A stretch of 64,000 nt of DNA, taken from positions 578-64,577 of the forward strand of contig JAHFFT010000009.1 in the NCBI GenBank assembly GCA_023247795.1, given 5' to 3'. Made by a program: the position numbers and the translations under genes. Positions 5,948-64,000 of this stretch are shown one piece after another. The DNA is from Candidatus Omnitrophota bacterium (GTDB lineage: Bacteria; Omnitrophota; Gorgyraeia; Zapsychrales; JANLHA01). The notes below the pieces were generated by a model. It saw only the letters and a program-made list of their open reading frames with translations. It did no database searches and was not told the DNA's origin. Each line of letters opens with the position of its first letter. Positions within the stretch are counted from its first letter, which is position 1.

Positions 5948-8900
5948 ATGAACTTTTCTCGAAACAAATCCTATTTTTTATTTAAACCATTGGCGTACTT
6001 TGTCTTATGGTTTTTTCTTTTAAACAACCTCATGCCAATCCCCTTGGCTAACGCTCAGGAAATCTTTTCTCTGCCCAAACCAAACGTGATGCTGGGGCTA
6101 TCGAGTCCTTTTACTCCCGTTATTCTTAAAGGACTTAAGGTCAACACCCATAACCCTTTCGAATTTGACTTCATCATTGACTCGGGCAGCAATAAACTAC
6201 AAGTTAACGCGGTCGGGGATCAAAACGAACATATCCAACAACAACTCAAACCGGAATCAGAGAAACTCATCAAATATTTTTTGGCGTCCTTAACCATCCC
6301 CGAGGATGACCTTTGGGTCAACTTATCGGTGTATGAAAGTGGTAAAATCGTGCCTGCTCAATTAGGCCAAACTGAAATGGGTCGCGATTTGTTGGCCCAA
6401 GATTATCTGCTCAAACAACTGAGTTCATCTTTGCTATACCCAGAAAATGAAATTGGAAAAAAATTCTGGGAACGCGTTTATCAAAAAGTTTATGAAAAAT
6501 TCGGGCGCACCGATGTGCCCATCAATACGTTTAATAAAATTTGGATCGTTCCAGAGAAAGCCGTTGTGTACGAAAATGGCGCAAACGCCTTTGTTGTTGA
6601 AAGCTCGCTGAAAGTTATGCTTGAGGAAGATTATCTGGCAAAGCAAGAAGAAGGAAAGAGCAACCCGATCGCAAAAATTCAACAAGACGATACTTCAACC
6701 CTTTCATCGCAAATTGTTCGTGACGTCATGATCCCAGCGATTGAGCAGGAAGTTAATGAAGGAGCGTTATTTTCTCAACTGAGACAAATCTACAGCGCGC
6801 TCATCCTGGCGACCTGGTACAAAAAGGCCTTAAAAGAAAGTTTGATCAGCCAAATTTACGTTGACCAGAAAAAAGTAAAAGGAGTTGAAACAAACGACCC
6901 CGGCGTCATTAACAAAATCTACGATCAATACGTGCAGGCCTTCAAAGAAGGCGTCTACAATTTCATCAAAGAGGATTACGACCCCTATACTAAAGAAAAT
7001 ATCCCTAGAAAATATTTTTCCGGTGGTTTAACGCTCAAATTAAAAGATAAAGAACAGTACGTAACAACATTAGGCCATCAAAACAGCACTGACTTATTTA
7101 GCGTTCATGCCGGAACAAACGGCCTTGCTCCTTCAGGGGTTATTCCACTGAGTAATGATATTATTAGAGAAATGAAGTTAAAGCCTCTTGATGGTTCATT
7201 GGAATTGAACTCACAAAATTTCGGCTTAAATATAACTCCTAAAACAAACGATGTCTTCATGTTTACAAGTACCAAAAATGATGAAATAACCGAACTCGAA
7301 AACCATTGCCGCGAGTTTGTTGATCAGAATCTAGATCGAGTCCTAAAAAAATTTCATGTCCCAGGCAAATTGCAAACAAGAAGCAAAGTTCTTCTGATTC
7401 AAGAGATGGTCGATATTAAAATGACGGATGATCCTGACTTATCAGATGAATTGATTCTTGAGTATGTCATTGTTGAATTTGTTGAAAAGGACGTTGACTT
7501 TTTAAAAAATACTCGTGTACCTGATGATACGGAAATAAAAATCACAAATAAAGCACTAAAAATGTTGGAAGCAATTAACGAAAAATGGAAATTGCCTGAT
7601 GCTCCGACCGTCTCTATTGTTATGAGTTCCAATTTTAAGGATAAAGTCAATGGTAGGTATGTGGATCTTTTTCATACAATGGTGATTAAAGAAGATTTAT
7701 CAGAGGATGAAATGTTGGAGACCATCTTACATGAATGGCTGCATCATTTTTTTGAAGGCTTTGAAGCAAAATGGCTGGATGAAGGAACAATCGAATACCT
7801 TACGATTAAACTCTTAATTGAAAATAATGCCCTGCCGCAACAACCCAAGCAAATGCCGGAATGGTCGGATAAAATTGAAAAAATGGTTTTTGGCAAATTA
7901 TTTGAATTAGGCAAGATTGGTCCGGTGAGTCAATATATTGTCAGCCATTATTTGAACCAAGGAACCGTTTCTTATCCAATTTACACAATCATTGTAGAGT
8001 ATCTCGTGGAGCAGATACTCCCAAAATTGAATATGGACTTACCATCTTTCCTTTCTGATTTCAAATTTGGGAGAAAGACAAAAATATTTGAGCAGCTGAC
8101 AAGTAATTCAAGAAATAGTTTGTTTGAACTTATTGAGCAAGCTCAAAATAGTAAAAATTTTTATGATTGGCCAGAAAACATTCTTATTAGCACTGAGCAG
8201 AGAGCCCAAATGGAACAAATAATTGCGTCCATAGTGAAAACTCATCCTTGGGCTCTTAAAGCCCCGCATGTTGTTAAACATGTAACAGACGTATTGAATT
8301 TATTACTATTAACTCATCAAACAGTTATGTCTAGTGATGGAGTTTTACAAATTACTAGGGAACACTTCCAGAATTTGCTTGAGCTTCAAGAAAGAATGCG
8401 TGCCGCAAACCAAGCAGGGGATAAACAAACAAGGGCACAATTAGAAAACGAGTTGGCTCGGATGGAAAACGATTTTGATGATAAGTTAAATGAAATTGGG
8501 AGAGCTCCTATTGATTTATTAATGCTAGGGAAAGATGGTGAACCAGCGTCTGCCATGGAAAACCAGGGAGTCTCAGAAGAACCTTCTGATCAATTTAAAT
8601 CCAAACTCAAACATACAATTAGAAATCTTGACCCTGAAACCAAAATTTTCGAAACGGGAATGACAATCGGAGGCCTTAAGACCATATTCGGTATAGAAGA
8701 CGACCTGGAAATGGCTCATGTTGATGATTTTCGAATAAAAAATTTAAATCCAAAATACATTGATCTCGTCTCGTATCTTGGCGCCAAAGAGTTCAATAAT
8801 TCTTTGGAATCCATTCTAAAAATTATTTATATTTTAGAAAATTACCCTCATATTCTGTTAGAAGTAGGCGGGGGAACAACCAAAGTTGCCCATGCCCTAG

Positions 8901-9793
8901 CCTTAAAAAATCAAAATATAGGAGTCATCACCTTTGATAAGTATGATCGATTATCAGGGGACTACGGTGAATGGGGGCGAGATTTTCAACGAAATGCTTT
9001 AATCGCCCAAAAAAATGCTCTTAACAATTTAGTCGTCGTACGGGCGGATCAAAGAATGCTGCGTTACTTGCCTTTAAATGCTGTGGATGATATTTTATTT
9101 GTCAACCCCAATTTTCTGCTTGCCGAAATAAAATTGGATAAAGAAACGCAGAGGCCTTTAAAACCCAATGGAAGGATTCTACAAAAACCATATGATCACC
9201 GGCAATTTATTGACCGAGGAACTCTTGAGGCTATATTAGCCGTTGAGCCAGATTTTTTTAACGCAGTTGCCCTTGCCAAAAAAAGATCCAAATTTCCAAT
9301 CCATGTGCTGGGAAGAGATTTTCAACCGCCTTATGATCCTCATGAAAGATCTCTCCCTGGCATTATTCGAATTAAGGGTCCCCAAGAAGAAATTATTCAA
9401 GGATATACTTTTACAAATCTGAATACCAGTATCCTTTATGGCGTGGATATCGAACCCCTGGCCTGGCAAAATAGAGGAGAAACATTATATGAGTGGCGGA
9501 AAGAACATGTGCCAATAAAACCTATGAGTGACAAACTCTTATTATCCAGTCCAACAGCCGCTTCTGAAACAAATGACTTTCAAAAAGGTGGTATTGACCT
9601 CAATCCCATCCGATCTCAGTTGGATGTCAAAGGCAATGAACAAAAACCGGTTTTTAATTTCAATCTGAACGATTTGAAAAAAATCAACATTGAAGGGTTA
9701 AGTCCGTTTATTATCAACATCTCCCCCATCACAAACCTTCCTTTGTTCTTGAGTTATCAAGAAGAAGATCAACAACCGAGTGAAATCCGCTAA
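5948..9793 (+). CDS. Large secreted or membrane-anchored multidomain protein with a gluzincin-like HExxH..E motif and a C-terminal class I SAM-methyltransferase-like domain
   Basis: N-terminal hydrophobic signal peptide (cleavage site ...PLANA-QE). HEWLHHFFEGFEAKWLDEGTIEY at ~aa 590 resembles HExxH...WLNEGFATY of M1/gluzincin peptidases. LEVGGGTTKVAHALA...ITFDKYD...AVDDILFVNPNF...KPNGRIL carries Rossmann MTase motifs I, II, IV-like and III. Confidence 0.55.
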   Translation: MNFSRNKSYFLFKPLAYFVLWFFLLNNLMPIPLANAQEIFSLPKPNVMLGLSSPFTPVILKGLKVNTHNPFEFDFIIDSGSNKLQVNAVGDQNEHIQQQLKPESEKLIKYFLASLTIPEDDLWVNLSVYESGKIVPAQLGQTEMGRDLLAQDYLLKQLSSSLLYPENEIGKKFWERVYQKVYEKFGRTDVPINTFNKIWIVPEKAVVYENGANAFVVESSLKVMLEEDYLAKQEEGKSNPIAKIQQDDTSTLSSQIVRDVMIPAIEQEVNEGALFSQLRQIYSALILATWYKKALKESLISQIYVDQKKVKGVETNDPGVINKIYDQYVQAFKEGVYNFIKEDYDPYTKENIPRKYFSGGLTLKLKDKEQYVTTLGHQNSTDLFSVHAGTNGLAPSGVIPLSNDIIREMKLKPLDGSLELNSQNFGLNITPKTNDVFMFTSTKNDEITELENHCREFVDQNLDRVLKKFHVPGKLQTRSKVLLIQEMVDIKMTDDPDLSDELILEYVIVEFVEKDVDFLKNTRVPDDTEIKITNKALKMLEAINEKWKLPDAPTVSIVMSSNFKDKVNGRYVDLFHTMVIKEDLSEDEMLETILHEWLHHFFEGFEAKWLDEGTIEYLTIKLLIENNALPQQPKQMPEWSDKIEKMVFGKLFELGKIGPVSQYIVSHYLNQGTVSYPIYTIIVEYLVEQILPKLNMDLPSFLSDFKFGRKTKIFEQLTSNSRNSLFELIEQAQNSKNFYDWPENILISTEQRAQMEQIIASIVKTHPWALKAPHVVKHVTDVLNLLLLTHQTVMSSDGVLQITREHFQNLLELQERMRAANQAGDKQTRAQLENELARMENDFDDKLNEIGRAPIDLLMLGKDGEPASAMENQGVSEEPSDQFKSKLKHTIRNLDPETKIFETGMTIGGLKTIFGIEDDLEMAHVDDFRIKNLNPKYIDLVSYLGAKEFNNSLESILKIIYILENYPHILLEVGGGTTKVAHALALKNQNIGVITFDKYDRLSGDYGEWGRDFQRNALIAQKNALNNLVVVRADQRMLRYLPLNAVDDILFVNPNFLLAEIKLDKETQRPLKPNGRILQKPYDHRQFIDRGTLEAILAVEPDFFNAVALAKKRSKFPIHVLGRDFQPPYDPHERSLPGIIRIKGPQEEIIQGYTFTNLNTSILYGVDIEPLAWQNRGETLYEWRKEHVPIKPMSDKLLLSSPTAASETNDFQKGGIDLNPIRSQLDVKGNEQKPVFNFNLNDLKKINIEGLSPFIINISPITNLPLFLSYQEEDQQPSEIR

Positions 9794-12526: not shown

Positions 12527-13720
12527 ATGAAAAAAACACAATATCTCATCATCGGGGCAGGTATTATCGGACTTTCCATTGCCCGCGCGCTCAAAAAACG
12601 CGATGCCTCCGGCAAAATCTTAATCATTGAAAAAGAACAAGATACTGCCCAACATGCTTCGGGCCGTAACAGTGGAGTTCTGCACGCTGGATTTTACTAT
12701 ACAGCCAACAGCTTAAAAGCGCGGTTTACGGTGGATGGGAATCGTCTCCTTAAAGAATACTGCCGGGAGAAAGGACTGCCGTTGAATGAATGTGGAAAAT
12801 TGGTTGTGGCGATGGATGACGCCGAGCTGCAAATCCTTTATGAGTTGGAAAAACGCGGTGTTCGTAACGGCGTTAAGGTTGAATTGATTGACGCGGCAGC
12901 CGCGAAAGAAATTGAACCAAATGTCAAAACGCATCAAAAAGCCTTGTATTCTCCAACGACGGCGAGCGTTGATCCGATCAAAGTCTGTCAGAGCTTAAAA
13001 GAGGATTTGAAACAACAGGGCGTTGAATTCCAATGGCAGGTGAGTTATGTCCGCCGCGAAAAGGGCACGGTTGAAACCAATCAAGGCGAAATCGAAGCTA
13101 AACAAGTGATCAATTGCGCTGGCCTCTACGCCGACAAAATCGCCCAAGATTTCGACTTTGGCCATGATTATACCATCATGCCTTTCAAAGGGCTTTATCT
13201 GAAATACAAAACCAATAAAACTGCTATCAAAACAAATATTTATCCCGTACCAAATTTACGAAACCCGTTTCTCGGGGTCCATTTCACCAAAACGGTTTAT
13301 GGTGACATCAAGATCGGCCCGACCGCTATTCCGGCCTTTTGGCGGGAAAACTATCAAGGATTTACAAATTTTCAAAGTAAGGAATTTCTGCAAATCATGG
13401 GTTATCAGAGCCAATTGCTGCTTAAAAACCGGTTTCATTTTCGAAACTTGGCTGTTGAAGAGATGAAAAAACACCAAAAATCATATTTTGTTGGCCTGGC
13501 CGCAAAACTGGTACAGCAGATTGACGCTGAAGGTTTTAGCGAATATACCAAACCCGGCATCCGCGCCCAGCTGCTCGATCGTAACACGCTTGAGCTGGTC
13601 CAGGATTTTGTCGTTGAAGGGGACGCTCACTCGGTCCACGTCTTAAACGCGGTTTCGCCTGCCTTTACCTGTGCCTTTCCGTTTGCTGAGCATATTGTCA
13701 GCCAATATTGTCCTGCTTGA
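12527..13720 (+). CDS. lhgO: L-2-hydroxyglutarate oxidase/dehydrogenase LhgO-family FAD oxidoreductase
   Basis: IIGAGIIGLSIA dinucleotide fold, then HASGRNSGVLHAGFYY...SLKARF, which is characteristic of LhgO. Confidence 0.75.
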   Translation: MKKTQYLIIGAGIIGLSIARALKKRDASGKILIIEKEQDTAQHASGRNSGVLHAGFYYTANSLKARFTVDGNRLLKEYCREKGLPLNECGKLVVAMDDAELQILYELEKRGVRNGVKVELIDAAAAKEIEPNVKTHQKALYSPTTASVDPIKVCQSLKEDLKQQGVEFQWQVSYVRREKGTVETNQGEIEAKQVINCAGLYADKIAQDFDFGHDYTIMPFKGLYLKYKTNKTAIKTNIYPVPNLRNPFLGVHFTKTVYGDIKIGPTAIPAFWRENYQGFTNFQSKEFLQIMGYQSQLLLKNRFHFRNLAVEEMKKHQKSYFVGLAAKLVQQIDAEGFSEYTKPGIRAQLLDRNTLELVQDFVVEGDAHSVHVLNAVSPAFTCAFPFAEHIVSQYCPA

Positions 13721-13859
13721 CTCAAGTCTCACGGTATTGTACACTTTAAATAAGCTGAAAAACGAATTATATCTTGACTTTTTGCTCTAGTTCGTTATGA
13801 TTTAGTTTAGCGGTCTTTAGAAATTAGCACGGAATTATGTCAAAAATAAGGAGTTACGC

Positions 13860-14423
13860 ATGAATTACCGAATCATGATTCAAGGAACACCCAATCCTAA
13901 TGCTTTAAAATTTGTCTTAAATGTTCCCGTAAAAAGCGCTGGAAACGTAACCTATAAATCCGCCCAAGATTGCGAGTTCAATCCTTTAGCGAAAAAAATT
14001 TTTGACGTCAGTCCTGACATCAAAGAGGTCTATTTTTTTGATAACTACATTACCGTCACTCAAAACGGCAACTCCGATTGGAACAATATTGAGGAGCTTG
14101 TGCAAAAAACCATTCTCGATAACGTTGCTCAACATAATCCTAATTTTATGGATGTTCAAAAGCAAACATCACCGCAACTGCAAGCCAATACCGATGACCC
14201 TGAACTGGCCAAGATTGGTGCCATTTTGGATCAAACCGTGCGCCCGGCGCTGCAGGCCGACGGAGGGGATTTGCAGCTGATTGAATTGCGTGACAATGTT
14301 TTAAAAATCAATTACCAAGGTGCCTGTGGCTCCTGCCCAAGTTCGACGATGGGAACGCTCAAAGCGATTGAAGAATTGCTTAAGTCGGAATACAACCCTA
14401 ATATCAAACTTGAAGCGGCTTAA
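13860..14423 (+). CDS. nfuA: Nfu/NifU-like Fe-S cluster carrier (Nfu N-terminal and NifU C-terminal domains)
   Basis: C-terminal GACGSCPSS CxxC motif and an Nfu_N-like N-terminal half. Confidence 0.75.
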   Translation: MNYRIMIQGTPNPNALKFVLNVPVKSAGNVTYKSAQDCEFNPLAKKIFDVSPDIKEVYFFDNYITVTQNGNSDWNNIEELVQKTILDNVAQHNPNFMDVQKQTSPQLQANTDDPELAKIGAILDQTVRPALQADGGDLQLIELRDNVLKINYQGACGSCPSSTMGTLKAIEELLKSEYNPNIKLEAA

Positions 14424-14439
14424 GATTGAAAAAAAACTT

Positions 14440-14814
14440 ATGACAAATCGTGCTGATTTAGCGCAAATGAAATGTGAGCCCTGTGAAGGAAAGACGGCTG
14501 CCTTCACGAAAAAGCAGGTGCTAGAGTATCTGACCGGTACGCCGGCATGGCGATTGGATATAAAAAACAATTCCATTTCACGCAATTTTCTTATGAAAAA
14601 TTTTTTGTCGGCGGTGAAATTCATTAATGAGGTTGCAGATATTGCTGAGGCTGACAACCATCATCCCGATGTCCATTTGACTGGATACCGGAATTTAAAA
14701 ATAGAATTGAGCACCCATGCGATTGGCGGATTGTCAGAAAGCGATTTTATTGTTGCGGCAAAGATCGACCGGCTACAACCGGAACTGAAGGCCGAAAGAA
14801 AAGCCCATGTTTAA
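14440..14814 (+). CDS. Pterin-4a-carbinolamine dehydratase (PCD/DCoH)
   Basis: EADNHHPDVHLTGY signature. The ATG at 14440 is in the frame of ORF 14320; the upstream part overlaps nfu and is treated as an over-extension. Confidence 0.75.
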   Translation: MTNRADLAQMKCEPCEGKTAAFTKKQVLEYLTGTPAWRLDIKNNSISRNFLMKNFLSAVKFINEVADIAEADNHHPDVHLTGYRNLKIELSTHAIGGLSESDFIVAAKIDRLQPELKAERKAHV

Positions 14815-15262
14815 AATCAACCGAAAAATCGAATACGCCTTAATCGCCCTTAAGCACATGAGCCATAAATCACCAGGACAGCTGACCTCCGCCAAAGAAA
14901 TCTGCGATCTTTATCATACACCCTTTGACCCAACGTCGCGGGTATTGCAAATCATGTCGCAGCATGAGGTGGTCCGAGCGGAACAAGGGGCCTATGGCGG
15001 TTATCAGATCGTAAAAGATTTAAAAAAAGTCACCTTGGGTGAGCTTTGTGACATGATTTCCGGACCGATTCAAATCGCCAGCTGTTTTTCCGGTGATTAT
15101 TCCCACTGCGAATTGAACACCTATTGCAGTGTCATTGGCCCGATGTTGAACCTGAATGAAAAAATCTCAGCACTTTTCGGTCAAATCAAGATCGCTGATT
15201 TGATCGAACGCAAGCATCTCGGCGAAAAATCGATCCGCGAAAAGCCGACAGCAGAAAAATAA
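14807..15262 (+). CDS. Rrf2-family transcriptional regulator (IscR/SufR-like) leading the suf operon
   Basis: [13 protein letters not shown]-terminal winged helix-turn-helix typical of Rrf2. Cys residues are consistent with an Fe-S-sensing regulator. Confidence 0.8.
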
Positions 15263-15269
15263 GGAGTTC

Positions 15270-16751
15270 ATGATGGTGAAAGCTTCTGAAGAAAAATTAC
15301 TCAATGAGAAAACCATTGAGGAAAATAGCCTGTCCCGTCGAGATTACAAATACGGATTCGTCACGGACATTGAAACCGAACGCATCCCTATGGGGCTGAA
15401 TGAAGACATCATTGCTCTGATCGCGGAAAAGAAAAATGAGCCGCAATGGATGCTGGAGTGGCGCTTGAAGGCCTATCGGCATTGGACAAAAATGAAAGAA
15501 CCGCATTGGCCAAATTTTCATTACGACCCGATCGATTATCAAGCCTTGAGTTATTACACCTCACCCAAATGGAAAAAAGACCAACAGCCTAAAAATTTGG
15601 ATGAGGTTGATCCGGAACTGTTGAAAACGTTTGAACGTTTAGGGATCCCTTTGACCGAACAAAAACGCTTAAGCGGTGTGGCAGTGGATGCGGTGTTTGA
15701 CAGCGTTTCCGTAGGAACAACGCATCAATCCGAACTGGAAAAGCACGGTGTCATTTTCTGTTCAGTGAGTGAGGCGGTGAAAACTCATCCGGAACTGGTT
15801 AAAAAATATCTGGGCAGTGTTGTGCCCTACACCGACAATTTCTTTGCCGCCCTCAATTCGGCAGTGTTCAGCGATGGTTCCTTCTGCTATATCCCAAAAG
15901 GAGTGCGCTGCCCGTTGGATTTATCCACTTATTTTCGCATCAATGCCGCGGAAACCGGTCAGTTCGAGCGTACCTTGATCGTTGCCGAAGAGGGGAGTTA
16001 CGTAAGCTACCTGGAAGGCTGCACAGCACCGATGCGAGAGCAAAACCAATTGCATGCCGCGGTTGTCGAACTCATCGCTTTAGATAACGCCGAGATCAAA
16101 TATTCGACCGTGCAGAACTGGTATGCCGGTGACAAACAAGGAATAGGCGGCATTTACAACTTCGTCACCAAACGCGGAAAATGCCTTGGTCATCACTCCA
16201 AAATTTCCTGGACGCAGGTTGAGGCTGGTTCGGCCATCACCTGGAAATACCCCAGTGTCATTTTGCAAGGGGATGATTCGATTGGTAAATTTTATTCCGT
16301 TGCCTTGACCAACAACCGTATGCGGGCAGATACCGGAACCAAAATGATCCATATCGGTAAGAACACCAAAAGCACCATCATCTCCAAAGGGATCTCGACC
16401 GATGAGTCCAATAACAATTACCGCGGGCTGGTGAAAGTGCTGCCGTCTGCGGATAATGCGCGAAATTTTTCGCAATGCGACTCGATGCTGGTCGGTAATA
16501 AATGCAGTGCCAATACCTTTCCGTATATCGAAGTAAAAAATAGCACGGCCACATTAGAGCATGAGGCCTCAACTTCTAAAATCAATGCCGATCAAATTTT
16601 TTATCTGCAATCACGCGGGTTGGATTTGGAAGGGGCCATCTCTTTGATCATCAACGGTTTTTGTAAGGAGGTCTTCAAAGAACTTCCTCTGGAATTCGCC
16701 GTCGAGGCGGTCAAACTTTTAGAAATGAAATTGGAAGGAAGTGTTGGTTAA
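15270..16751 (+). CDS. sufB: Fe-S cluster assembly protein SufB
   Basis: 493 aa with SufB/SufD-family conserved C-terminal region, in a suf operon context. Confidence 0.9.
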
Positions 16752-51615: not shown

Positions 51616-52890
51616 ATGCCCATCGTTTACCTTGGCTTAGGTTCAAATCTCGGCAACCGCAAAGCCAATATCAACGCGGCACTAAAAAAATTGGGCGCTG
51701 CCAGGATAACTGTTGAAAAGACAGCTGCCTTCCTGGAAACAGAACCCGTTGGTGGTCCAGCGCAAGACAAATTCATCAACACCGTAGCCAAGGCTTTCAC
51801 CAAACTCTCACCAGAAGAACTCTTAACACAGATCCAAACCATTGAAAAATCCTTAGGCCGAGTGCGAAGCGTTAAAAACGGCCCAAGAACCATTGATATC
51901 GATATTTTACTTTATGACCAGCTGAAAATAAAAAAGGCCAATCTCACGATCCCGCACCCACGTATGCTGGAACGTGAATTTGTGATGACACCTTTAAATG
52001 AAATCGCACCGAACATGATTAAAAAAATGCGAATCATCAAAACAATTCAGAATCTAAGAAAAGAGTTAATAAAATTTCGTCTGCAAAATCAGCGCATTGG
52101 CTTTGTCCCGACGATGGGGTCCCTGCACCAAGGGCACCTTTCCCTGATCCGAAAATCCGTTAAAGAAAATGAAATTACGGTCGTCAGCATTTTCGTCAAC
52201 CCGCTGCAGTTCGGGCCGTCTGAAGATTTTAAAAACTATCCTCGAAACATCAAAAAGGACCAATCTTTGGCAAAACAAGGATGGGCCGATATCATTTTTA
52301 TTCCCAACGAAAAGGAAATGCTCAATTCTAGCCAATTGACCTATGTCGACGTTGAAAAACTCACACAAGGATTATGCGGTGCTTTTCGTCCCGGACATTT
52401 CCGCGGGGTCACAACGATCGTTGCCAAATTGTTAAACATTGTTCAGCCCCATTCCCTATATCTAGGTCAAAAGGACATTCAGCAGGCGGTGGTCATCCAA
52501 AAAATGACCAACGATCTCAATATCCCAGTCAACATAAGAGTTTGTCCCACAGTCCGCGAAAAGGATGGTTTGGCCATGAGTTCACGAAACCAATATTTGT
52601 CGTCCGCGCAAAGACAAGAGGCTGTCATCCTTTATCAATCGCTGCAGTTGGGACAACAATTCATTCAAGCTGGAGAGACCGAAGTGAGTAAAATTCTGCG
52701 TCAGATGCGCGAAAGAATCACAAAGAACAGCCCGGTGAAAATCCAATATCTGGCTTGTGTTGATCCCGTGAATTTAGAACCGCTCAAAATCATCAATGGA
52801 AATGTGCTTTTGGCCGGCGCGGTTTGGATAGGAAACACGCGTCTCATTGACAACATCAACGTTCGCGCGATATCACGGAAAAACAAATGA
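51616..52890 (+). CDS. Bifunctional fusion of HPPK (FolK) and pantoate--beta-alanine ligase (PanC)
   Basis: N-terminal half has LGLGSNLG...GPRTIDIDIL...PHPRMLEREFVMTPL (canonical HPPK). C-terminal half has GFVPTMGSLHQGHLSL and the later PanC motifs. Confidence 0.8.
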   Translation: MPIVYLGLGSNLGNRKANINAALKKLGAARITVEKTAAFLETEPVGGPAQDKFINTVAKAFTKLSPEELLTQIQTIEKSLGRVRSVKNGPRTIDIDILLYDQLKIKKANLTIPHPRMLEREFVMTPLNEIAPNMIKKMRIIKTIQNLRKELIKFRLQNQRIGFVPTMGSLHQGHLSLIRKSVKENEITVVSIFVNPLQFGPSEDFKNYPRNIKKDQSLAKQGWADIIFIPNEKEMLNSSQLTYVDVEKLTQGLCGAFRPGHFRGVTTIVAKLLNIVQPHSLYLGQKDIQQAVVIQKMTNDLNIPVNIRVCPTVREKDGLAMSSRNQYLSSAQRQEAVILYQSLQLGQQFIQAGETEVSKILRQMRERITKNSPVKIQYLACVDPVNLEPLKIINGNVLLAGAVWIGNTRLIDNINVRAISRKNK

Positions 52891-53711: not shown

Positions 53712-53756
53712 TTCAAATCAGGCAATCATTTGCCATTTCAGAAAGGGGGTGAAATC

Positions 53757-54059
53757 ATGGTTAAGAAAGTCGCTAAAGTAGGTATCAAAAAGCAAAAAGG
53801 TTACCTTTACTTCGTTGATAAGAAAGGTGATGTGTCTTGCGCCCAAATGGCCCGAGGGAATAAAAAGGGTGGAAAACCGCAAAAGGTGGCTACGGTTGGC
53901 ATCAAGAAAGAAGCGGGGTTTCTTTATTTCATTGACAAGAACGGTGACATCTCCTGCGCGAAAATGGTGCGCGGCGGTACAAAAAAGAAGGCTACCGCTC
54001 GTCGTGCTACAACAAAGCGCAGTGCTGCACCTAAGAAGAAAGCATCAAAGAGGAAGTAA
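53757..54059 (+). CDS. Small lysine-rich protein with an internal tandem duplication and a histone-H1-like K/A-rich tail
   Basis: Two ~35-aa repeats, KVAKVGIKKQKGYLYFVDKKGDVSCAQMARG and KVATVGIKKEAGFLYFIDKNGDISCAKMVRG, then KKKATARRATTKRSAAPKKKASKRK. aggggg Shine-Dalgarno sequence before the ATG at 53757. Confidence 0.6.
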   Translation: MVKKVAKVGIKKQKGYLYFVDKKGDVSCAQMARGNKKGGKPQKVATVGIKKEAGFLYFIDKNGDISCAKMVRGGTKKKATARRATTKRSAAPKKKASKRK

Positions 54060-57018: not shown

Positions 57019-59541
57019 ATGAAACACCCAAATGAAATTTTAAAAATGACCGTCTTAATTTTCGCGCTCATTTTAGCATTTTCTAAAACACCGCTGGTGT
57101 ATGCCCAGAACCTCCCCAATCCCACCAATTCCGACAAAGCCGAGCAAGAATTGTTCATCGTGGCCCAACGTTCTTTCGACGACGGGTTCTATGATGTGGC
57201 CAACCGCTACATCCAACAATTCCTCGCGAAATATCCCAAGAGTGAAAAACTCGTTCAAGCCAAATTGCTATTAGGGCAATGTTATTTTTTTCAAAGTCAA
57301 TACCTGAAGGCCTATGAAGTTTTTCAAAATCTGCTTTCCTTCTCGGAGTACAAGGACGCGACCCTGTACTGGTTAGGGGAAACTTATTTCAAGGGTGCCG
57401 ATTACAAACAGGCTCAATCCTATTACAGTCAAGTGATTGATGTCTACCCACAATCAGAATACCTTCCGCAAGCGACCTATGCCTTGGCCTGGAGTTATTT
57501 TGAACAAGGGAATTATAAGATCGCCAAACAAAATTTTTTAAAACTGATCAATGAATTTCCCGGCCACCAACTCAGCGAAGACGCTGCTTTCAAATTGGGC
57601 GAGTGCGAACAAAACCAGGGCAATTACAAGGTCGCGGCCAACCATTTCAAGGACTACATCATCAAATATCCCCACTCCAACCGCCATCCGCAGGCTTACT
57701 TTTATATCGGTGAAGGGTATTACTACGTCGAGGATTATCTGACCGCCATCACCTATTACGCGAAGGCCGCGGACATCAGTTACACCCCTGACTTAAACGT
57801 ATTGGCCAAGACCAGCATGGGCTGGTGCTATTTGAAATTGGGGAAACATGATCTCGCCCAAAAAGCATTTGAAGAGGCCAGATCGCTTGCTGACGAGAAA
57901 AAACTGCTCAGCGACGAAATTTATTTGGGACAGGCGACCCTTTTCTTGGAGATGGGGAACAATGAGTTGGCCCTTGCCAATTATTCGGCCTTGATTGAAA
58001 AATTCCCCAGCAGCCCGAGGGTGGCAGAGGCCCGTTTGGGCATGGCCAACATTTACTACTCATTAAAAAATTACGACAAGGCTGTCCGTGGTTATCAAGC
58101 GATCCTGTCCGAATTTCAAAATGATCCGAAATGGAGCGAGATCATTGAAAAAGCGACTTATGGGCTCGCCTGGACTTATTTGAAAGCCGGGAATGTTGAT
58201 TTGGCCGTTAAAAATTTTCAGGATATCATGAACAAAACCGACAGCAAAATTGTCAAGGTCAGCGCCTTGACCCAAATCGCCGATGCTTACCAAGAAACGG
58301 ATGAATTGGAAAAAGCGTTGAAAGTTTACGATCAAATTTTACGCGACTATCCTGACAGTTTATACACCGACTATGTCCAGTACCGTCAGGGGATCGCTTT
58401 ACTCAAACTCAATCGCGTCGAGGCGGCAACCCTTTCCTTCCAAACCATGCAAACCAATTTTCCGAAAAGCAAATATCTTGAAGACGTAAACTATTATCTC
58501 GCTCTTGCTTATTTTAAAAAAGAAGATTGGCGGCAAACGGTTGAAAAAGCCGAAGAGTATCTCAAACAATTGCCTTCCCACAAAACATTTGAAACAGAAT
58601 CGCAGTATATTTTAGGGCTGTCCCTCGTGGAACTCAAACAGTATCAAGAGGCTTTCACCACCTTTCAAAAACTCCTAAAGACTCCGGCCCTGCAGGACCC
58701 AATGTTGCGAAGCTCAGAACTGAATCTGGCCAAATGTTTCTATCACCTCGGTGATAAAAGGGAGGCCGTCAAAAGATTCAAATTGCTATTTCAACGTTAC
58801 CAAGACTCCGATACTGGCGAGGAGGCCTTGCTTTGGCTGGGAGATCATGAACTGAAAGAACAAAATTTTTCGAACGCCATTGAACATTATGAAAAATTTG
58901 TTCAGACCTACCCGGTGAGCCAAAAACTGCAAATCGTTTACTATGAACTTGGGGTCGCTTACCAGGCTGAAAAACAATGGGAAAAGGCCCTGCATTTTTA
59001 CCGATTGGTGGACGATCCATCGGCGAAAGAGATCTACGCTAAAGCCAAATTAGCCGCCGCTGATATCTTTTCTCAACAAACAGATGATGGGGAGGCCAGC
59101 CTTGAACGCTATCTAAAAATTGTCGACAGCAATCCGGATTATAAACGCGACGCCCTCGTAAAAATCGCCTCGATTTATTACAAACAACCGAACTACGAAA
59201 AGGCCGTGGATTTTTACCGTCAAGCCTTGACCGCGGAAAAAGGACTGAGCGAAATTTCAGACCCTGAGCTGGAATTCCACATTGGTGACGCCTTTGAATT
59301 GGGGAACCAAACAAAAGATGCGGTGGAGGCTTATCTAAGAATCCCCTATCTGCACGCGCAAGCCCAACCATGGTGCATCAAAGCCTATTTGCGGGTCGCC
59401 CGCATCTTCGAAGACCAGGAGCAATGGCAGGAAGCCAAAGGGATTTACCAAAAAGTCAGCCAATACCAAAGTAATGAAGCAAAATACGCGAACGAACGGA
59501 TTCAGTGGATCAATCAAAACGTTTTTCAAAAAGCAATTTAA
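57019..59541 (+). CDS. Large periplasmic TPR-repeat protein with a signal peptide
   Basis: Signal peptide ILAFSKTPLVYAQN, then numerous 34-aa TPR-like repeats (Y..A......G.Y..A). It lies directly upstream of exbB/tolQ. Confidence 0.7.
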   Translation: MKHPNEILKMTVLIFALILAFSKTPLVYAQNLPNPTNSDKAEQELFIVAQRSFDDGFYDVANRYIQQFLAKYPKSEKLVQAKLLLGQCYFFQSQYLKAYEVFQNLLSFSEYKDATLYWLGETYFKGADYKQAQSYYSQVIDVYPQSEYLPQATYALAWSYFEQGNYKIAKQNFLKLINEFPGHQLSEDAAFKLGECEQNQGNYKVAANHFKDYIIKYPHSNRHPQAYFYIGEGYYYVEDYLTAITYYAKAADISYTPDLNVLAKTSMGWCYLKLGKHDLAQKAFEEARSLADEKKLLSDEIYLGQATLFLEMGNNELALANYSALIEKFPSSPRVAEARLGMANIYYSLKNYDKAVRGYQAILSEFQNDPKWSEIIEKATYGLAWTYLKAGNVDLAVKNFQDIMNKTDSKIVKVSALTQIADAYQETDELEKALKVYDQILRDYPDSLYTDYVQYRQGIALLKLNRVEAATLSFQTMQTNFPKSKYLEDVNYYLALAYFKKEDWRQTVEKAEEYLKQLPSHKTFETESQYILGLSLVELKQYQEAFTTFQKLLKTPALQDPMLRSSELNLAKCFYHLGDKREAVKRFKLLFQRYQDSDTGEEALLWLGDHELKEQNFSNAIEHYEKFVQTYPVSQKLQIVYYELGVAYQAEKQWEKALHFYRLVDDPSAKEIYAKAKLAAADIFSQQTDDGEASLERYLKIVDSNPDYKRDALVKIASIYYKQPNYEKAVDFYRQALTAEKGLSEISDPELEFHIGDAFELGNQTKDAVEAYLRIPYLHAQAQPWCIKAYLRVARIFEDQEQWQEAKGIYQKVSQYQSNEAKYANERIQWINQNVFQKAI

Positions 59542-59553
59542 CGGGAGGGCGCA

Positions 59554-60198
59554 ATGGAATTAGGACAGCTGAATGCCTGGCAATTGATCATGAAAGGAGG
59601 ACCTATCATGGTCCCGCTGCTTCTCTGCTCGATCATTGGCTTAGCCGTCGTTATCGCAAAGCTCATCTATTTTACGAGCATCGCAACGAACACCCAAGCA
59701 CTCCGCCAAGAGGTCTTCGCGTTCCTCAAAAATAACCGCATCCGCGAGTCCATCGAGACTTGTGAAAAAAGTCCGTCACCGGTAGCCAAAATTCTTCTGG
59801 CGGGGATTCTTAAACTCGGCGACACACGGGAAAATATCAGTCAAGCCATGGAAGACGCGAGCCTCTTTGCCGTCCCTGAGCTTGAAAAACGAATCAACAT
59901 CCTTTCAACGATCACGCACCTGGCCCCTCTGCTGGGACTGCTCGGCACCGTGACTGGTCTTACAAACACTTTCCACGCGATCCAAACGCGTGCCGCAACC
60001 ATGAATCCAATGTCTCCGGGAGATTTGGCTGGCGGGATCTGGGAGGCCCTACTGACCACTGTTGCCGGACTCGTGATTGCTGTCTGCGCCTTTATCACTT
60101 ACAACTACCTTTTGTCCCGGGTGAATCATTTTATTATCGATATGGAAAGAGCGGGCAGCGAACTTCTAAATTTACTAACACAAGTCTCATCATCATAG
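59554..60198 (+). CDS. MotA/TolQ/ExbB-family proton-channel protein
   Basis: 214 aa, three TM spans and the conserved C-terminal TolQ/ExbB region (LGLLGTVTGL). Confidence 0.8.
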   Translation: MELGQLNAWQLIMKGGPIMVPLLLCSIIGLAVVIAKLIYFTSIATNTQALRQEVFAFLKNNRIRESIETCEKSPSPVAKILLAGILKLGDTRENISQAMEDASLFAVPELEKRINILSTITHLAPLLGLLGTVTGLTNTFHAIQTRAATMNPMSPGDLAGGIWEALLTTVAGLVIAVCAFITYNYLLSRVNHFIIDMERAGSELLNLLTQVSSS

Positions 60199-60231: not shown

Positions 60232-60642
60232 ATGGTTCTAAAATTCAAACGAAACCTTGTCAAATCACCCACGAGCTATGAATTGAGTTTCACACCGTTG
60301 ATTGCGGTGATCTTTCTCATTCTCGTTCTTTTTATGTTGTCATCGTCATTGACTTTTCAAAAGGGGATTGAAGTCAAACTTCCCAAGGCGGTGACCAGCG
60401 ACACCTTACAAGAAAAAAATTCGGTGGTCTCGATCACCAGTGAAAATGTGATTTATCTAAACAAATCCGTTATGACGATCAAAGAATTGGAAAAAATCCT
60501 AAAAAACCCGAAGTTGCAATCGCGCCCCCTGCTCATCAAAGCCGACCGTCGCGCCTCGGTAGGGAGGGTCGTTGATATCTGGGATCTCTGCCGCAAACTG
60601 GGGATCGAAAAATTGAATATCGCGACCAACCAAGAAAATTGA
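60232..60642 (+). CDS. ExbD/TolR-family biopolymer transport protein
   Basis: 136 aa, a single N-terminal TM (LIAVIFLILVLFML) and an ExbD-fold periplasmic domain. Confidence 0.8.
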   Translation: MVLKFKRNLVKSPTSYELSFTPLIAVIFLILVLFMLSSSLTFQKGIEVKLPKAVTSDTLQEKNSVVSITSENVIYLNKSVMTIKELEKILKNPKLQSRPLLIKADRRASVGRVVDIWDLCRKLGIEKLNIATNQEN

Positions 60643-61082
60643 TGAAACTCCGTCAGCTGCCCACGCTCCATATTTCTTTTATCGCTTTTTTACTCTCGGC
60701 ATTTTTGCACATATCCGTTTTAATTTTTAAAATTTCATTTTCAACAATTCCAAGCGAGACAAAGCCGACTCTCATTTTTCTTGGATCGATTCTGAATCAA
60801 AAAAACTTATTTGAACAAAACCCACTCTTGTTAAGAGAAAACAGTCACTCCCAAAATGAGCGGATTCCCGTCAGCAATAACGAGAGCGTGTTTCACCCGC
60901 AAAGGACCTCCGGGATCAAAAAGCCTTTCTATTCTAAAGACATTCAGAAGATCGATAAAAGCAGTTCAAAAATACTTTTTCCCTTGCCTCAGCAAAAAGA
61001 GCAATCACCGTCGGAACTTGGAATTGACGCGAACCCTCAACCCTATCAACCTTTAAAATTGCCGGGATCTCATGACCATTGA
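60639..61082 (+). CDS. Membrane-anchored Pro/Gln-rich protein in the TonB/TolA position, with no recognizable C-terminal domain
   Basis: N-terminal TM, then a low-complexity P/Q/S-rich periplasmic segment. Too short (147 aa) for a canonical TonB C-terminal domain. Confidence 0.45.
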   Translation: MMKLRQLPTLHISFIAFLLSAFLHISVLIFKISFSTIPSETKPTLIFLGSILNQKNLFEQNPLLLRENSHSQNERIPVSNNESVFHPQRTSGIKKPFYSKDIQKIDKSSSKILFPLPQQKEQSPSELGIDANPQPYQPLKLPGSHDH

Positions 61083-61299
61083 ATTTTCAACCCTCGTGTC
61101 GTTTTTAATTCTTTTACCTCTCCTCCTTGTCTTTCCGCATTGGCTATTCTATAATCAAAAGAGGGAGGCAGCCGCAAAGTTCGATATGCAGACGTTCGAG
61201 CAATGCCCCTATTGCAGTAGGGTCTTTTTCACGAATGAGAAAAAAGATATCTATAGCTGTCCGCATTGCCGCAGTCTCATAACCGCGGATAAAAAGTAG
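61072..61299 (+). CDS. Small membrane-anchored zinc-ribbon protein
   Basis: N-terminal TM, then CPYCSRV...CPHCRS (CxxC-x16-CxxC). Confidence 0.45.
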   Translation: MTIEFSTLVSFLILLPLLLVFPHWLFYNQKREAAAKFDMQTFEQCPYCSRVFFTNEKKDIYSCPHCRSLITADKK

Positions 61300-61316
61300 G
61301 ACTGGAAGGGAAAAAA

Positions 61317-61688
61317 ATGACCAATCCAAAATTTTTTTGTAACCGTTCGGGAATGGTTATGGTGATGGTGATCATGTTGACGCTTGTCTTTGCCATCATC
61401 ATGATCGGCATCCTTTCACTGAACGTCAGCCGGGTCAAAACCGGTCAGAGTTTGGTCGATAGCATCAAAGCTGAGCAACTGGCCGCGGGAGTCATGTATC
61501 GACAAATGCAGCTGCAGATGGATCAATGCCAGCTTTGCCCAATCCCCGGTGATTGCAGTTCCTGTCCGGCATTGGGATCTGAAAACATGGACAACCATGC
61601 CTTCGCTATCTCGGTCAGTAACCAAGGCGCCTCCGCCAATTCCAATCTTAACAACACCAACCAATACCAATTCAAAGTCGACTTTTAA
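61317..61688 (+). CDS. Hypothetical N-terminally membrane-anchored protein with a Cys-rich C-terminus (possible divergent pseudopilin-like protein)
   Basis: Hydrophobic MVMVMVIMLTLVFAIIMIGIL after a short charged leader ending in G. C-terminal CQLCPIPGDCSSCP. The canonical GFTLxE prepilin motif is absent. Confidence 0.35.
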   Translation: MTNPKFFCNRSGMVMVMVIMLTLVFAIIMIGILSLNVSRVKTGQSLVDSIKAEQLAAGVMYRQMQLQMDQCQLCPIPGDCSSCPALGSENMDNHAFAISVSNQGASANSNLNNTNQYQFKVDF

Positions 61689-61867
61689 TTGTTCCACCTC
61701 GAATTATTCGAATTATTCGATCTTAATTGACAAAGCACCCCTGGTATAGTTAAATTAAATTGCTGTTGAGTTGCACACAATTAACAAACAGATATGGCAG
61801 TCTCTCGACGTATATTTTTTAAATAACTAGTTTTACTACTTATGCCTATGTCAATATTACAATTTAG

Positions 61868-63376
61868 ATGTTGAAATTCGGGAAAAAGACAAAACTAGGC
61901 TTGTATTGGGGCAAGGAGTCCCTTTTCGTTGTCGCCGCTAAGAATGGCCTGGCGGAAAAAATCCTGTCGCTTTCCTTGCAAGAAGCTCTCCAATCACAAA
62001 AAGAAAAAACCCTTCCGGAAAAAATACTATTAGGGTCTTTTCTGTTAAGCAAGCTCGGCAATTTCAAATCCCAATCAAAATCGATCGGTCTTGCTCTTCC
62101 CGCCAACGATCTCATGGTCCGTTCTTTCACAATCCCCATAATGAAGAAGGAGGAGATAAAAAATGTTGTTGAGTTTGAAGCCATCAAATACATTCCTCTC
62201 AAACTCTCGGAATTGACCCATACTTTTCACACCATTCCGCTAACGGACGGGCAACAGAAAGGGTTACGCGTGCTTTTTGTTGCCATTAAGATGAATACGC
62301 TGCAAAGATACACTGGAACATTAGAACATGCCGAATTTGCTATTGAACGCATTGAACCTTCTTTTGTTAGCTTGGTTCGCGCCCTGAACAAAAAAGGACT
62401 GATCAATAAAAATCAACCCACCGCTGTCATTGAATTTGAAAAAGGTAAAAACAAAATCCTCATTCTCGATGAGGACGTCGTCCAACTTGTCCGTGAAATT
62501 CCCGCTCCCGATGAAGAATCAGAATTCACGTCAGCAAACAACAATCTGCTCAAAGACATCCGGGTTTCGCTTGATTTTTATAAACGACAAAACCCTAAAA
62601 GTGATATCAAAAATATTTTAGCGGTTTCGCAAATGTCCCTGAATGAATTGACAACCGGCATCGGCCGCGAGTTCGGATTTTCCAGTCAGTACATTTCAAC
62701 TTCGCAGCTCTTAAATATCAAGGAGACCGTTGATCTTGGATTCGTCTATGCCTATGGCCTGACCCTGGCGGAACAGGAAATCAGTACAAAAAATTTTGAA
62801 TTGTCCGGCCATCCGGCTCGCCTACAGCAGCAGCCCCAATATGCCCTGGCCGGAATCGCTTTGTTTGTCTGTGCGTGCTTTGCCATGCTCAGCGTTTATT
62901 TATCAAATCAAATGATTGTCGGCCATTGGGATCATCTCGCCCAACTGGAAAAAAGCCAGGGATCATTTGAAAAATCTTCGATCGAGGAAATTGAAAAAAA
63001 ACGAATGGAAAAATTGGGTGAATTTTATGCCTATCAGGATATCCGGCTGAAAAGCCAAATCAATGATGAGTTGACCCGAATTCCCAATCTTTTACCGCAA
63101 GGGACGTGGTTGACAAGCTGGGAGTTCGCTTACTACGACAAAAGCTACGAACAGGACAAGATCAATCGCCTAAATTCTCGTCTGCAAATGAACTTTGAAG
63201 GATACACTTACGCAAAAAACCCAAACGCTCAATTTCAAATCATTAACAACTGGCTGGCCCAACTTAAAAATGACGAACATTTCTCACGGCAATTTGACAC
63301 CATCGAATTGGGCTCCGTGCAACAGGAAAATCTGGGAGAATATCCAGTAACGAAATTCAAAATCTCTTGCCGATGA
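61868..63376 (+). CDS. PilM-like actin-fold assembly ATPase fused to a PilN-like transmembrane/periplasmic segment
   Basis: N-terminal LGLYWGKESLFVVAA and DIRVSLDFYKRQ resemble PilM motifs. A TM helix YALAGIALFVCACFAMLSVYL lies at ~aa 320, followed by a periplasmic tail. Confidence 0.5.
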   Translation: MLKFGKKTKLGLYWGKESLFVVAAKNGLAEKILSLSLQEALQSQKEKTLPEKILLGSFLLSKLGNFKSQSKSIGLALPANDLMVRSFTIPIMKKEEIKNVVEFEAIKYIPLKLSELTHTFHTIPLTDGQQKGLRVLFVAIKMNTLQRYTGTLEHAEFAIERIEPSFVSLVRALNKKGLINKNQPTAVIEFEKGKNKILILDEDVVQLVREIPAPDEESEFTSANNNLLKDIRVSLDFYKRQNPKSDIKNILAVSQMSLNELTTGIGREFGFSSQYISTSQLLNIKETVDLGFVYAYGLTLAEQEISTKNFELSGHPARLQQQPQYALAGIALFVCACFAMLSVYLSNQMIVGHWDHLAQLEKSQGSFEKSSIEEIEKKRMEKLGEFYAYQDIRLKSQINDELTRIPNLLPQGTWLTSWEFAYYDKSYEQDKINRLNSRLQMNFEGYTYAKNPNAQFQIINNWLAQLKNDEHFSRQFDTIELGSVQQENLGEYPVTKFKISCR

Positions 63377-64000
63377 AAAAACCCGCCATGGACATCATCA
63401 AAAAATTACAAAATTTGGACCTCAACGACCTGAAAAATATTGACCTCAAAGAGATCAATTACGAAAAAATCCTCACCTTTTTCAAAACGCATCTTGATAA
63501 AACCATTGTCGCGGCATCCGTTTTAGCAACTCTGTTTTTTTCCTTTCAATATTTTATCAAAAAACACGCTGAAATCACGACGGTCAGCAATCAAATCACC
63601 CAACTCGAAAAAAAAATCGCCGCCATCAAAGAATACGACGCTGTTGACAAAAAAAACAATGACTTTCTCAATCTGATTCCTCCCACCGTCAACGATGAAG
63701 ATTTCATGAACAAATTGACCGATTTCGCGGACAAACGCAATATCCAAATCAAGTCCTTTGCCCCGACCAAACGCCAAGAGATGAAACTTTATGACGCCAG
63801 CTCCCTCAATTTGAACGTTACGATCCAAGACTATAAAAACTTGTGGCTTTTTATTCATGACATTGAAACATCCCCTTTAAACATTCGAATTGATTTGCTG
63901 ACCTGCCGCGTCGGGCCCGGGGGGGGAAACAGGCGATCTCAGCCAGAGGTCCCGATGGAAAACGAAATCAAAAACCCCATTGATGTTCAATTGGGAATTT
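63373..64000 (+). CDS. PilO-like membrane-anchored protein, 3'-truncated by the window end
   Basis: ATG at 63373 overlaps the preceding stop. TM helix IVAASVLATLFFSFQYFI, then a coiled coil (ITQLEKKIAAIKEY). Its position after the PilM/N fusion points to PilO. This frame is not in the ORF track because there is no stop inside the window. Confidence 0.4.
   Translation, partial: MKKPAMDIIKKLQNLDLNDLKNIDLKEINYEKILTFFKTHLDKTIVAASVLATLFFSFQYFIKKHAEITTVSNQITQLEKKIAAIKEYDAVDKKNNDFLNLIPPTVNDEDFMNKLTDFADKRNIQIKSFAPTKRQEMKLYDASSLNLNVTIQDYKNLWLFIHDIETSPLNIRIDLLTCRVGPGGGNRRSQPEVPMENEIKNPIDVQLGI

Follow-up and report, generated by a model that had tools for sequence, protein, structure and literature searches.

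Gene clusters for type IVa pili (T4aP) have been reported to be near-universal in the phylum Omnitrophota (PMC10066038). Seymour et al. 2023 classed the clusters of this phylum as T4aP and reported that V. archaeovorus expresses T4a pili (PMC10066038); their text describes a co-location with F-type ATPases and makes no mention of ExbB, TonB or a secretin. In type II secretion systems (T2SS), the subunit PulL/GspL has been described as PilM fused to PilN (PMC10191384), and in P. aeruginosa the ExbB, ExbD and TonB paralogues PocA-PocB-TonB3 are needed for T4aP assembly and localisation (PMC5285504). Here, we analysed a stretch of 64,000 nucleotides from the genome of a Candidatus Omnitrophota bacterium (contig JAHFFT010000009.1, positions 578 to 64,577; this whole stretch is hereafter called the window), with emphasis on four genes located on the + strand between position 61072 and the window end at 64000, which encode a zinc-ribbon membrane protein, a pilin-like protein, a PilM-PilN fusion and a PilO homologue. 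Very probably, this region is the junction of two gene modules of an Omnitrophota genome, the second of which, a pilus module, is cut by the window end. We are just as confident that this second module, from position 61317 onward, corresponds to the 5' end of a complete, ordinary type IV filament cluster of T4aP-like kind. It thus shares with the loci of Seymour et al. the phylum and the kind of cluster, although no F-type ATPase was found among the window open reading frames (ORFs) scanned.

The four genes are preceded on the same strand by genes for UvrA, an 840-aa tetratricopeptide repeat (TPR) protein, ExbB, ExbD and a 147-aa membrane-anchored protein. The features listed in an initial annotation, made from the letters alone, were recovered. 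These comprise a zinc ribbon (CPYC...CPHC) placed after an N-terminal transmembrane (TM) helix in a 75-aa protein (61072-61299), a 123-aa pilin-like protein devoid of the GFTLxE motif (61317-61688), a 502-aa PilM-PilN fusion whose DIRVSLDFY motif is conserved across the family (61868-63376), a PilO-like gene running past the window end (from 63373 to 64000 and beyond) and, directly upstream, ExbB and ExbD, both with Pfam matches.

The genes expected beyond the window were sought in related genomes. A scan with one genome per species gave 80 loci, about 65 of them with full-length fusions, and the fusion loci were labelled nearly all as Omnitrophota or automatically as "Planctomycetales". The window proteins were used in iterative hidden Markov model searches against all ORFs of these loci, the counts being made over 59 distinct fusion proteins; lower denominators correspond to the loci with enough flanking sequence. 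Loci of the relatives are designated by L-numbers, L006 being the closest relative (88% identity). PilO was found downstream of the fusion in 54 of 56 loci. The secretin, ATPase, platform and major pilin genes, all located outside the cut window, were consistently present in the relatives: a PilP-slot protein and a secretin in 50/50 loci, PilB and PilC in 36/36, and pilins in 35/35, with complete downstream pil genes seen in L001-L005. In contigs whose homologues of the fusion have about 37% identity, the upstream order is aspartate dehydrogenase, a small protein, UvrA, TPR, ExbB and ExbD, continued by proteins of 137-161 aa, 84 aa and 121-125 aa, an HTH_17 protein (in some), PilMN and PilO. 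PilO is followed there by a 174-187-aa protein, a secretin with STN, Secretin_N and Secretin domains, a T2SSE/PilB ATPase with an MshEN domain, a T2SSF/PilC platform and 4-5 N-methyl pilins. In L006, PilO (225 aa) precedes a 196-aa PilP-slot protein, a 521-aa secretin ORF and PilB-matching sequence that extends to the contig end. The PilMN protein of the window has an identical (100%) database copy (P0001), encoded on a contig of 64.7 kb that the window covers almost entirely.

Since downstream pil genes occur in all relatives with enough flank, the absence of PilB, PilC and PilQ noted in the initial annotation, which is correct inside the window, is a truncation artefact: the window stops about 14 codons before the PilO stop. 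The relatives, in which PilO, PilP, the secretin, PilB, PilC and the pilins lie directly downstream, also lend no support to the suggestion of a non-canonical envelope machine built around an Exb motor without PilB, PilC and PilQ. The opposite possibility raised at that time, a standard pil operon preceded by unrelated housekeeping genes, was largely borne out as regards the downstream pil genes but not the small upstream genes, one of which belongs to the Exb/TonB module while the other is a putative minor pilin of the pilus system. A prepilin peptidase was encountered neither in the scanned ORFs of the window nor in the clusters that were examined, although no specific search for one was made.

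Several lines of comparison define the PilM-TM-PilN fusion encoded at 61868-63376 (+ strand), namely Pfam and NCBIfam scans, an AlphaFold2 model, Foldseek and a family profile. Pfam PilM_2 (PF11104) is matched with 31.9 bits (cut-off 27) but over residues 62-159 only, and TIGR01175 with 46.4 bits, under its cut-off of 133. Residues 403-502 match PilN (PF05137) below the cut-off (16.6 bits vs 22.8), as does the fusion T2SSL (PF05134; 14.9 bits vs 25.5), and the NCBIfam scan also returned an Amuc_1101-family match. PF11104 matches were precomputed for all 15 full-length homologues, of which those with a named source are Omnitrophota, and a PF05137 match for one of them (P0012). At E<=1e-30 the family comprises 646 clusters at 50% identity, and the top 150 representatives are nearly all about 500-556 aa long and matched end to end, with a few shorter partial proteins.

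The AlphaFold2 model, which was built on a 15-sequence alignment, has a mean predicted local distance difference test score (pLDDT) of 80 and predicts an actin-like domain (residues 9-300), a disordered linker, long TM/coiled-coil helices (325-408) and a beta-beta-alpha-beta-beta domain (413-501, pLDDT about 90). When this model was compared with the PDB by Foldseek, PilM of P. aeruginosa, T. thermophilus and M. xanthus came first (5EOY, 5EOU, 2YCH and 3JC8; E 1e-18 to 3e-15). Next came FtsA (about 1e-10) and then, through their cytoplasmic domains, EpsL and GspL (about 1e-9, TM-score 0.67 on target). The family profile retrieved the PilM structures of the same three species from the PDB (the E-values among them being 4e-20, 4e-14 and 6e-10) and no GspL chain at E<=0.01. 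The protein is thus homologous, by sequence profile and fold, to the separate PilM and PilN of T4aP (2YCH, 5EOU, 3JC8), with which it also shares the gene order pilM/N-pilO-pilP-pilQ and a periplasmic topology made of a TM helix, a coiled coil and a beta-alpha-beta domain. It differs from these in being one polypeptide with a cytoplasmic domain about 50 residues shorter. With GspL/PulL/EpsL it has in common a cytoplasmic actin-like domain, one TM helix and a periplasmic ferredoxin-like domain; in contrast to those proteins, it remains below the T2SSL cut-off and is found with secretin and ATPase neighbours nearer to PilQ and PilB. The fusion therefore combines a GspL-like architecture with a PilM-like sequence and fold, and we regard it as the inner-membrane alignment subunit of a type IV filament machine, in which the cytoplasmic actin-like domain is tethered via one TM helix to the periplasmic PilN domain. 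The phosphate-binding motifs of its PilM domain are replaced, GLYWG aligning to GLEIG of T. thermophilus PilM and IE(F/I) to DIG; ATP binding is therefore doubtful and was probably lost. GspL is another case in which nucleotide binding has been lost.

The pilO gene (+ strand, from 63373) overlaps the pilMN stop by 4 nt (ATGA), and 209 of its codons are present in the window. The product is a homologue of PilO and the counterpart of GspM. The truncated fragment reaches 17.1 bits with Pfam PilO (PF04350; cut-off 22), while it has 90% identity to the full-length 225-aa orthologue of L006, and more distant orthologues in L014, L024, L042 and L061 pass this cut-off (26.6-34.2 bits). From established knowledge of T4aP and T2SS, PilMN, PilO and PilP would form an inner-membrane alignment complex that would link the PilB/PilC motor to the secretin. 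PilO would pair with the PilN domain of the fusion, and the covalent fusion would replace the contact between the PilN peptide and PilM, as in GspL.

Upstream of pilMN, a gap of 179 nt contains a promoter-like site (TTGACA-18-TAAATT, 61727-61756, + strand) that was identified by a consensus scan only. L006 keeps this site, although the spacer around it differs by an indel of 92 nt, an insertion in the window relative to L006. The spacer (61689-61867) also contains a direct repeat, TCGAATTAT, present in about 2.5 copies at 61699-61722, just 5' of the conserved TTGACA. An HTH_17 regulator gene occupies the spacer position in 26/52 loci; the window has none. Rfam gave no match in the whole window, and hence no riboswitch or other RNA in the 179-nt gap.

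Whether such a cluster makes a pilus or a secretion system has to be weighed on mixed signals. The orthologues of L001 were scored with NCBIfam models, all scores remaining below the equivalog cut-offs. The secretin scored higher with PilQ than with GspD (193.5 vs 158.3 bits) and the ATPase slightly higher with PilB than with GspE (627 vs 607 bits), whereas the platform favoured GspF over PilC (345 vs 319 bits) and GspG was the best match for the first pilin. In the PDB, the best matches were PilB for the full-length ATPase and PilQ for the secretin. The L001 PilB orthologue (13656-15377) carries an N-terminal MshE-type cyclic di-GMP motif (67.7 bits vs a cut-off of 38), which implies that cyclic di-GMP would control the filament machine. 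Attempts to classify the cluster as T4aP, T2SS or mannose-sensitive haemagglutinin (MSHA) pilus from the NCBIfam and PDB scores gave mixed signals, and no class was assigned.

A T2SS is one alternative to be considered, in which PilMN would be GspL, PilO GspM, the PilP-slot protein GspC, the upstream pilin lacking Glu5 GspK, and the pilins located downstream GspG-J. Each component has its counterpart in GspC-M, the PilM-PilN fusion is the textbook difference between T2SS and T4aP (PMC10191384), and no PilT-like ATPase lies within the cluster. The best models for the platform and the first pilin, a weak match of PilO to GspM and a T2SSM_b match in L061 point in the same direction, as does the occurrence of a second, classical cluster in L069, L077, L078 and L084. 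Each of these four loci has separate PilM and PilN, three PilB/PilT-like ATPases, PilC, pilins and PilO-PilP-PilQ, and some Omnitrophota-related genomes thus hold a classical T4aP-type cluster as well. On the other side, the PilM domain is far nearer to PilM than to GspL in Pfam scores, in Foldseek E-values and in the PDB profile search, the secretin resembles PilQ more than GspD, and PilB is the best match over the full length of the ATPase. None of the NCBIfam scores reaches its equivalog cut-off, and the clusters of the phylum have been classed as T4aP in a group with a member reported to express T4a pili (PMC10066038). We therefore consider the T2SS alternative rather unlikely, and the cluster as leaning towards a T4aP-like system, with mixed signals as to pilus or secretion.

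The gene at 61317-61688 (+ strand) encodes a GspK/PilX-type minor (pseudo)pilin-like protein of 123 aa with a basic leader to Gly12, followed by MVMVMV... without Glu5. In 39 orthologues, the Gly ending the leader (Gly-1, corresponding to Gly12 in the window) is conserved in at least 90%, and the consensus after the leader is G-[VI]-[VIA]-[LF]-x-T-V, with Met, Val or Ile at +1 and Met or Thr at +5, so that Phe+1 and Glu+5 of canonical pilins are lacking. GspK-type proteins have the N-terminus GVALITVL, and we take the pattern of the present family to resemble that of GspK/PilX-type minor pilins. The absence of F+1 and E+5 fits the GspK/PilX exception and excludes the status of a canonical pilin. 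Pfam PilX_N (PF14341) matches 20 of the 39 family members (best E 2.7e-6), the window copy not being one of them, and several of 406 homologues are named "PilX" by JGI. This gene precedes pilMN in 51/52 loci, including those without Exb genes, and is absent from L086 and L087, two loci without pil genes. The AlphaFold2 model shows a confident 62-residue N-terminal helix (10-71) and a C-terminal half with pLDDT <50 (mean pLDDT 61), and in the PDB the family profile found nothing beyond chance-level matches (FliL TM, mannanase). The protein described at first as Cys-rich is so in the window copy; this is not a feature of the family, as only the window, L006 (CxxC) and L003 have such a stretch.

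Taken together, the pilin-like protein is probably a GspK/PilX-type minor pilin of the pilus system, its cleavage being predicted only. It shares with described GspK/PilX proteins a leader ending in Gly, the lack of Glu5 and, for half of the family, the PilX_N match. It differs from them in several respects: members of the family are only 102-150 aa long and have no T2SSK globular domain, the gene is located upstream of pilMN and apart from the other pilins, and in two genomes the protein is fused behind a TM helix plus zinc ribbon.

The zinc-ribbon protein (61072-61299, + strand, 75 aa) is encoded by the last gene of the upstream ExbB-ExbD-TonB module. In 31 orthologues, its cysteines C45, C48, C63 and C66 never vary. 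The family counts 125 homologues, every one with a named source being from Omnitrophota and none having a Pfam domain. By the positive-inside rule, the topology would be N-out/C-in and the ribbon would be cytoplasmic. The gene overlaps the mini-TonB gene by 11 nt and follows TonB even in L086 and L087, where no pil genes follow; it is absent wherever ExbB and ExbD are absent. On its other side, a 17-nt gap separates it from the pilin-like gene in the window, while the two genes overlap in relatives. In L023 (9217-9786, 189 aa) and L043 (292-873, 193 aa), the zinc ribbon and the PilX-like protein form one ORF, that of L023 (P0399) being recorded by NCBI, Logan and ENA on two contigs, and their topologies are compatible. 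Longer zinc-ribbon homologues (105-125 aa) were examined as candidate fusions and rejected, their extra length being just an insert that separates the two CxxC knuckles. Because the zinc-ribbon protein always travels with the Exb and TonB genes and the PilX-like protein with the pil cluster, the two modules are regarded as adjacent and separable, and the zinc-ribbon protein is counted with the upstream TPR-ExbB-ExbD-TonB module and not with the pilus genes.

A number of points weigh against an ordinary T4aP-like cluster preceded by a distinct module. The contig of the window itself ends about 700 bp past the window, and the completeness of the cluster is therefore extrapolated from its relatives. 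The fusion, the lack of pilT in the cluster, the preference for GspF over PilC and the close scores of PilB and GspE are T2SS-like signals. The physical link of the zinc-ribbon gene to the PilX-like gene, fused in L023 and L043, blurs the module boundary, and a PilM domain without the usual phosphate-binding motifs may not behave exactly like PilM.

The upstream module starts with the TPR gene (57019-59541, + strand), whose periplasmic 840-aa product has YbgF/CpoB-like repeat units. The NCBIfam tol_pal_ybgF model matches it with 245.5 bits (cut-off 90) over 10 stretches, in addition to many TPR Pfam matches. The gene is present in 43/45 related loci and stays beside UvrA in loci that lack the Exb genes and also in those that lack the pil genes. 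A role as a PilF/PilW/Tgl-type pilotin was considered and rejected, the scores being far below the cut-offs and the YbgF model winning. The next gene (59554-60198, + strand) encodes an ExbB/TolQ-type proton-channel subunit (Pfam MotA_ExbB, 102.6 bits) with conserved GTVTG and WEALLTT motifs, for which NCBIfam gave TolQ 96.6 vs ExbB 66.3 bits, both below cut-offs. It is followed by an ExbD/TolR-type subunit (60232-60642, + strand; Pfam ExbD 88.2 bits vs a cut-off of 25.4). A membrane Asp is essential in ExbD (D25), TolR (D23) and MotB. At this position (residue ~25), the Asp is replaced by Ala in the window (TPLIAVIF) and in L006. Of the 48 informative sequences among 50 aligned orthologues, 30 have Asp and 14 Asn; the window and L006 are the 2 with Ala, and Ser and Thr occur in 1 each. 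These changes are spread over loci with widely different PilMN identity to the window, a pattern that suggests repeated loss of a predicted proton relay in otherwise intact genes.

The last component before the zinc-ribbon gene is a 147-aa protein with an N-in TM anchor (60639-61082, + strand), designated here as mini-TonB. Scans of the window protein with Pfam and NCBIfam gave no match and in particular neither a TonB_C nor a TolA domain III match. Its TM helix has the S-x3-H pattern (LLSAFLHIS in the window), with the His conserved in at least 90% of 36 orthologues and the Ser in about half, and Ser-x3-His makes up the first half of SHLS, the motif by which TonB and TolA bind to ExbB and TolQ (PMC12215075). 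The orthologues also have in common FLGxIL right behind the TM helix, a KP pair and, at the C-terminus, PYxPLRL; the periplasmic tail of the window protein is of low complexity. Two more distant contigs have in this slot a 222-aa protein that carries the TM His and FLGPIL and, in L087, matches Pfam TonB_C with 24.6 bits, equal to the cut-off. This match, together with the shared TM His and FLGPIL, identifies the window protein as a homologue of TonB from which the C-terminal domain has been lost. With such a TonB and an ExbD that has Ala for Asp, it is doubtful that the window encodes a working "motor", and the upstream module is best described as a separate, partly degenerate Tol/Ton-like set.

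One explanation for this set is a housekeeping Tol system (TolQ, TolR, a short TolA and a CpoB-like protein) with a role in outer-membrane integrity and division, placed beside the pilus genes by inherited gene order. This has a substantial chance of being true, if somewhat less than an even one. As in Tol-Pal (TolQ-TolR-TolA-CpoB), the best NCBIfam models are TolQ, TolR and YbgF/CpoB and the anchor has the Ser-x3-His found in both TolA and TonB; moreover, the module is embedded in a long co-directional housekeeping run (arg, dap, lysA, panC, uvrA) and occurs without pil genes. It differs from Tol-Pal by the lack of tolB or pal nearby, by a TolA-like anchor protein without domains II and III, and by a TPR protein of 840 aa with about 10 YbgF-like units. 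For a core division system, it would be odd that many lineages are without the ExbD Asp and that one locus group has lost the module as a whole, and the slot in L087 holds a TonB_C, not a TolA domain. No publication turned up when the literature was searched for Omnitrophota in combination with TolQ, TolB or ExbD.

How the two modules relate to each other was addressed by their distribution. The Exb module (ExbB, ExbD and the zinc-ribbon protein) lies directly upstream of the pil genes and on the same strand in 43/52 loci, down to about 23% PilMN identity. The adjacency reported in the initial annotation is therefore real and conserved, whereas its reading as one machine is not supported, as the modules also occur apart. 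UvrA is equally syntenic (34/35), its gene overlapping the TPR gene by 4 nt in several loci, and synteny is thus not function-specific here. In L086 and L087, the order UvrA-TPR-ExbB-ExbD-TonB-ZnR (ZnR, the zinc-ribbon protein) is followed by unrelated genes. In contrast, eight loci have the order UvrA-TPR-DUF2582-PilX-like-HTH_17-PilMN... without ExbB, ExbD, TonB or zinc-ribbon genes, and in L036 neither TPR nor Exb genes were among the upstream matches. The two modules are thus long-standing but separable neighbours, and nothing shows that they form one machine. As regards the group without Exb, TonB and zinc-ribbon genes (L049, L055, L058, L061, L062, L063, L065, L067 and L068), UvrA and TPR are kept, DUF2582 is a winged-helix gene, the PilX-like protein is longer with a clear PilX_N-type motif (SRIQAQYAAKAG), and the HTH_17 gene overlaps pilMN by 4 nt.

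An integrated machine has nevertheless to be considered, in which TPR-ExbB-ExbD-mini-TonB-ZnR would be a dedicated, Poc-like accessory of the type IV filament system and would help to position, gate or assemble the secretin or pilus, either by use of the proton-motive force or as a scaffold. Apart from the same-strand adjacency and the two fused zinc-ribbon/PilX ORFs with compatible topologies, this idea draws on the precedent of PocAB-TonB3 and on the resemblance of the PilQ N0 domain to the signalling domain of TonB-dependent receptors (PMC5285504), the secretin found here having an STN/N0 domain. The usual client of TonB is also unclear, since a 2026 preprint found canonical TonB-dependent receptor/sus-type import clusters to be absent from its Omnitrophota genome collection. 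As in P. aeruginosa, ExbB, ExbD and TonB paralogues would be linked to type IV pilus assembly or localisation (PMC5285504); here, however, the link is one of gene adjacency only, TonB is truncated, ExbD is without its Asp, and a zinc-ribbon protein comes in addition. Further objections are the equal synteny of UvrA, the existence of each module without the other, and the loss of the ExbD Asp in 18 of the 48 informative orthologues, window included, which looks like decay. The TonB protein without C-terminal domain is undetectable in some loci, some of them Asn-bearing, and the promoter-like site conserved in L006 separates the units. We therefore judge an integrated machine to be improbable. 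The same low probability applies to a more specific scheme, in which the truncated TonB would dock via PYxPLRL onto the N0/STN domain of the secretin or onto the TPR protein, the zinc ribbon, on the cytoplasmic side, would couple to the PilX-type pilin, and the complex of lineages with an Asp-less ExbD would have changed from a proton-driven motor into a static scaffold. If true, Ton-type proteins would here serve a secretin machine in a naturally simplified form.

Elsewhere in the window, the scanned ORFs include suf, moa, ispGH, fabF, leuB, asd and rplM/rpsI, together with the arg operon, lysA, dapFAB, folK-panC and aspartate dehydrogenase. An ISL3-family transposase (229-1251) is located at the start of this otherwise housekeeping window, and a 1281-aa ORF (5948-9793) has no Pfam match at E<=1e-5. 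HPPK (FolK) and pantoate-beta-alanine ligase (PanC) domains are combined in one 424-aa ORF (51616-52890). A basic protein of 109 aa (53730-54059) is made of two repeats of about 45 aa (VGIKKxxGxLYFxDKxGDxSCAxM); L001 and L003 have a small gene in the same slot between aspartate dehydrogenase and UvrA.

The principal result is in itself ordinary: these genes are the cut-off start of a kind of T4aP cluster already reported across Omnitrophota. They amount to a variant of a known system, some details of the adjoining Tol/Ton-like module being unexplained. The PilM-PilN fusion family, with its 646 clusters, nonetheless provides a useful intermediate for understanding how GspL of T2SS arose from PilM and PilN of T4aP. 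The conserved neighbourhood in the Omnitrophota loci examined also places beside a secretin machine a Tol/Ton-like module with a domain-less TonB, an Omnitrophota-specific zinc-ribbon partner and repeated losses of the ExbD proton-relay Asp. If the two modules interact, this arrangement would bear on how PocAB-TonB3 acts on pili and on why secretin systems need the proton-motive force.

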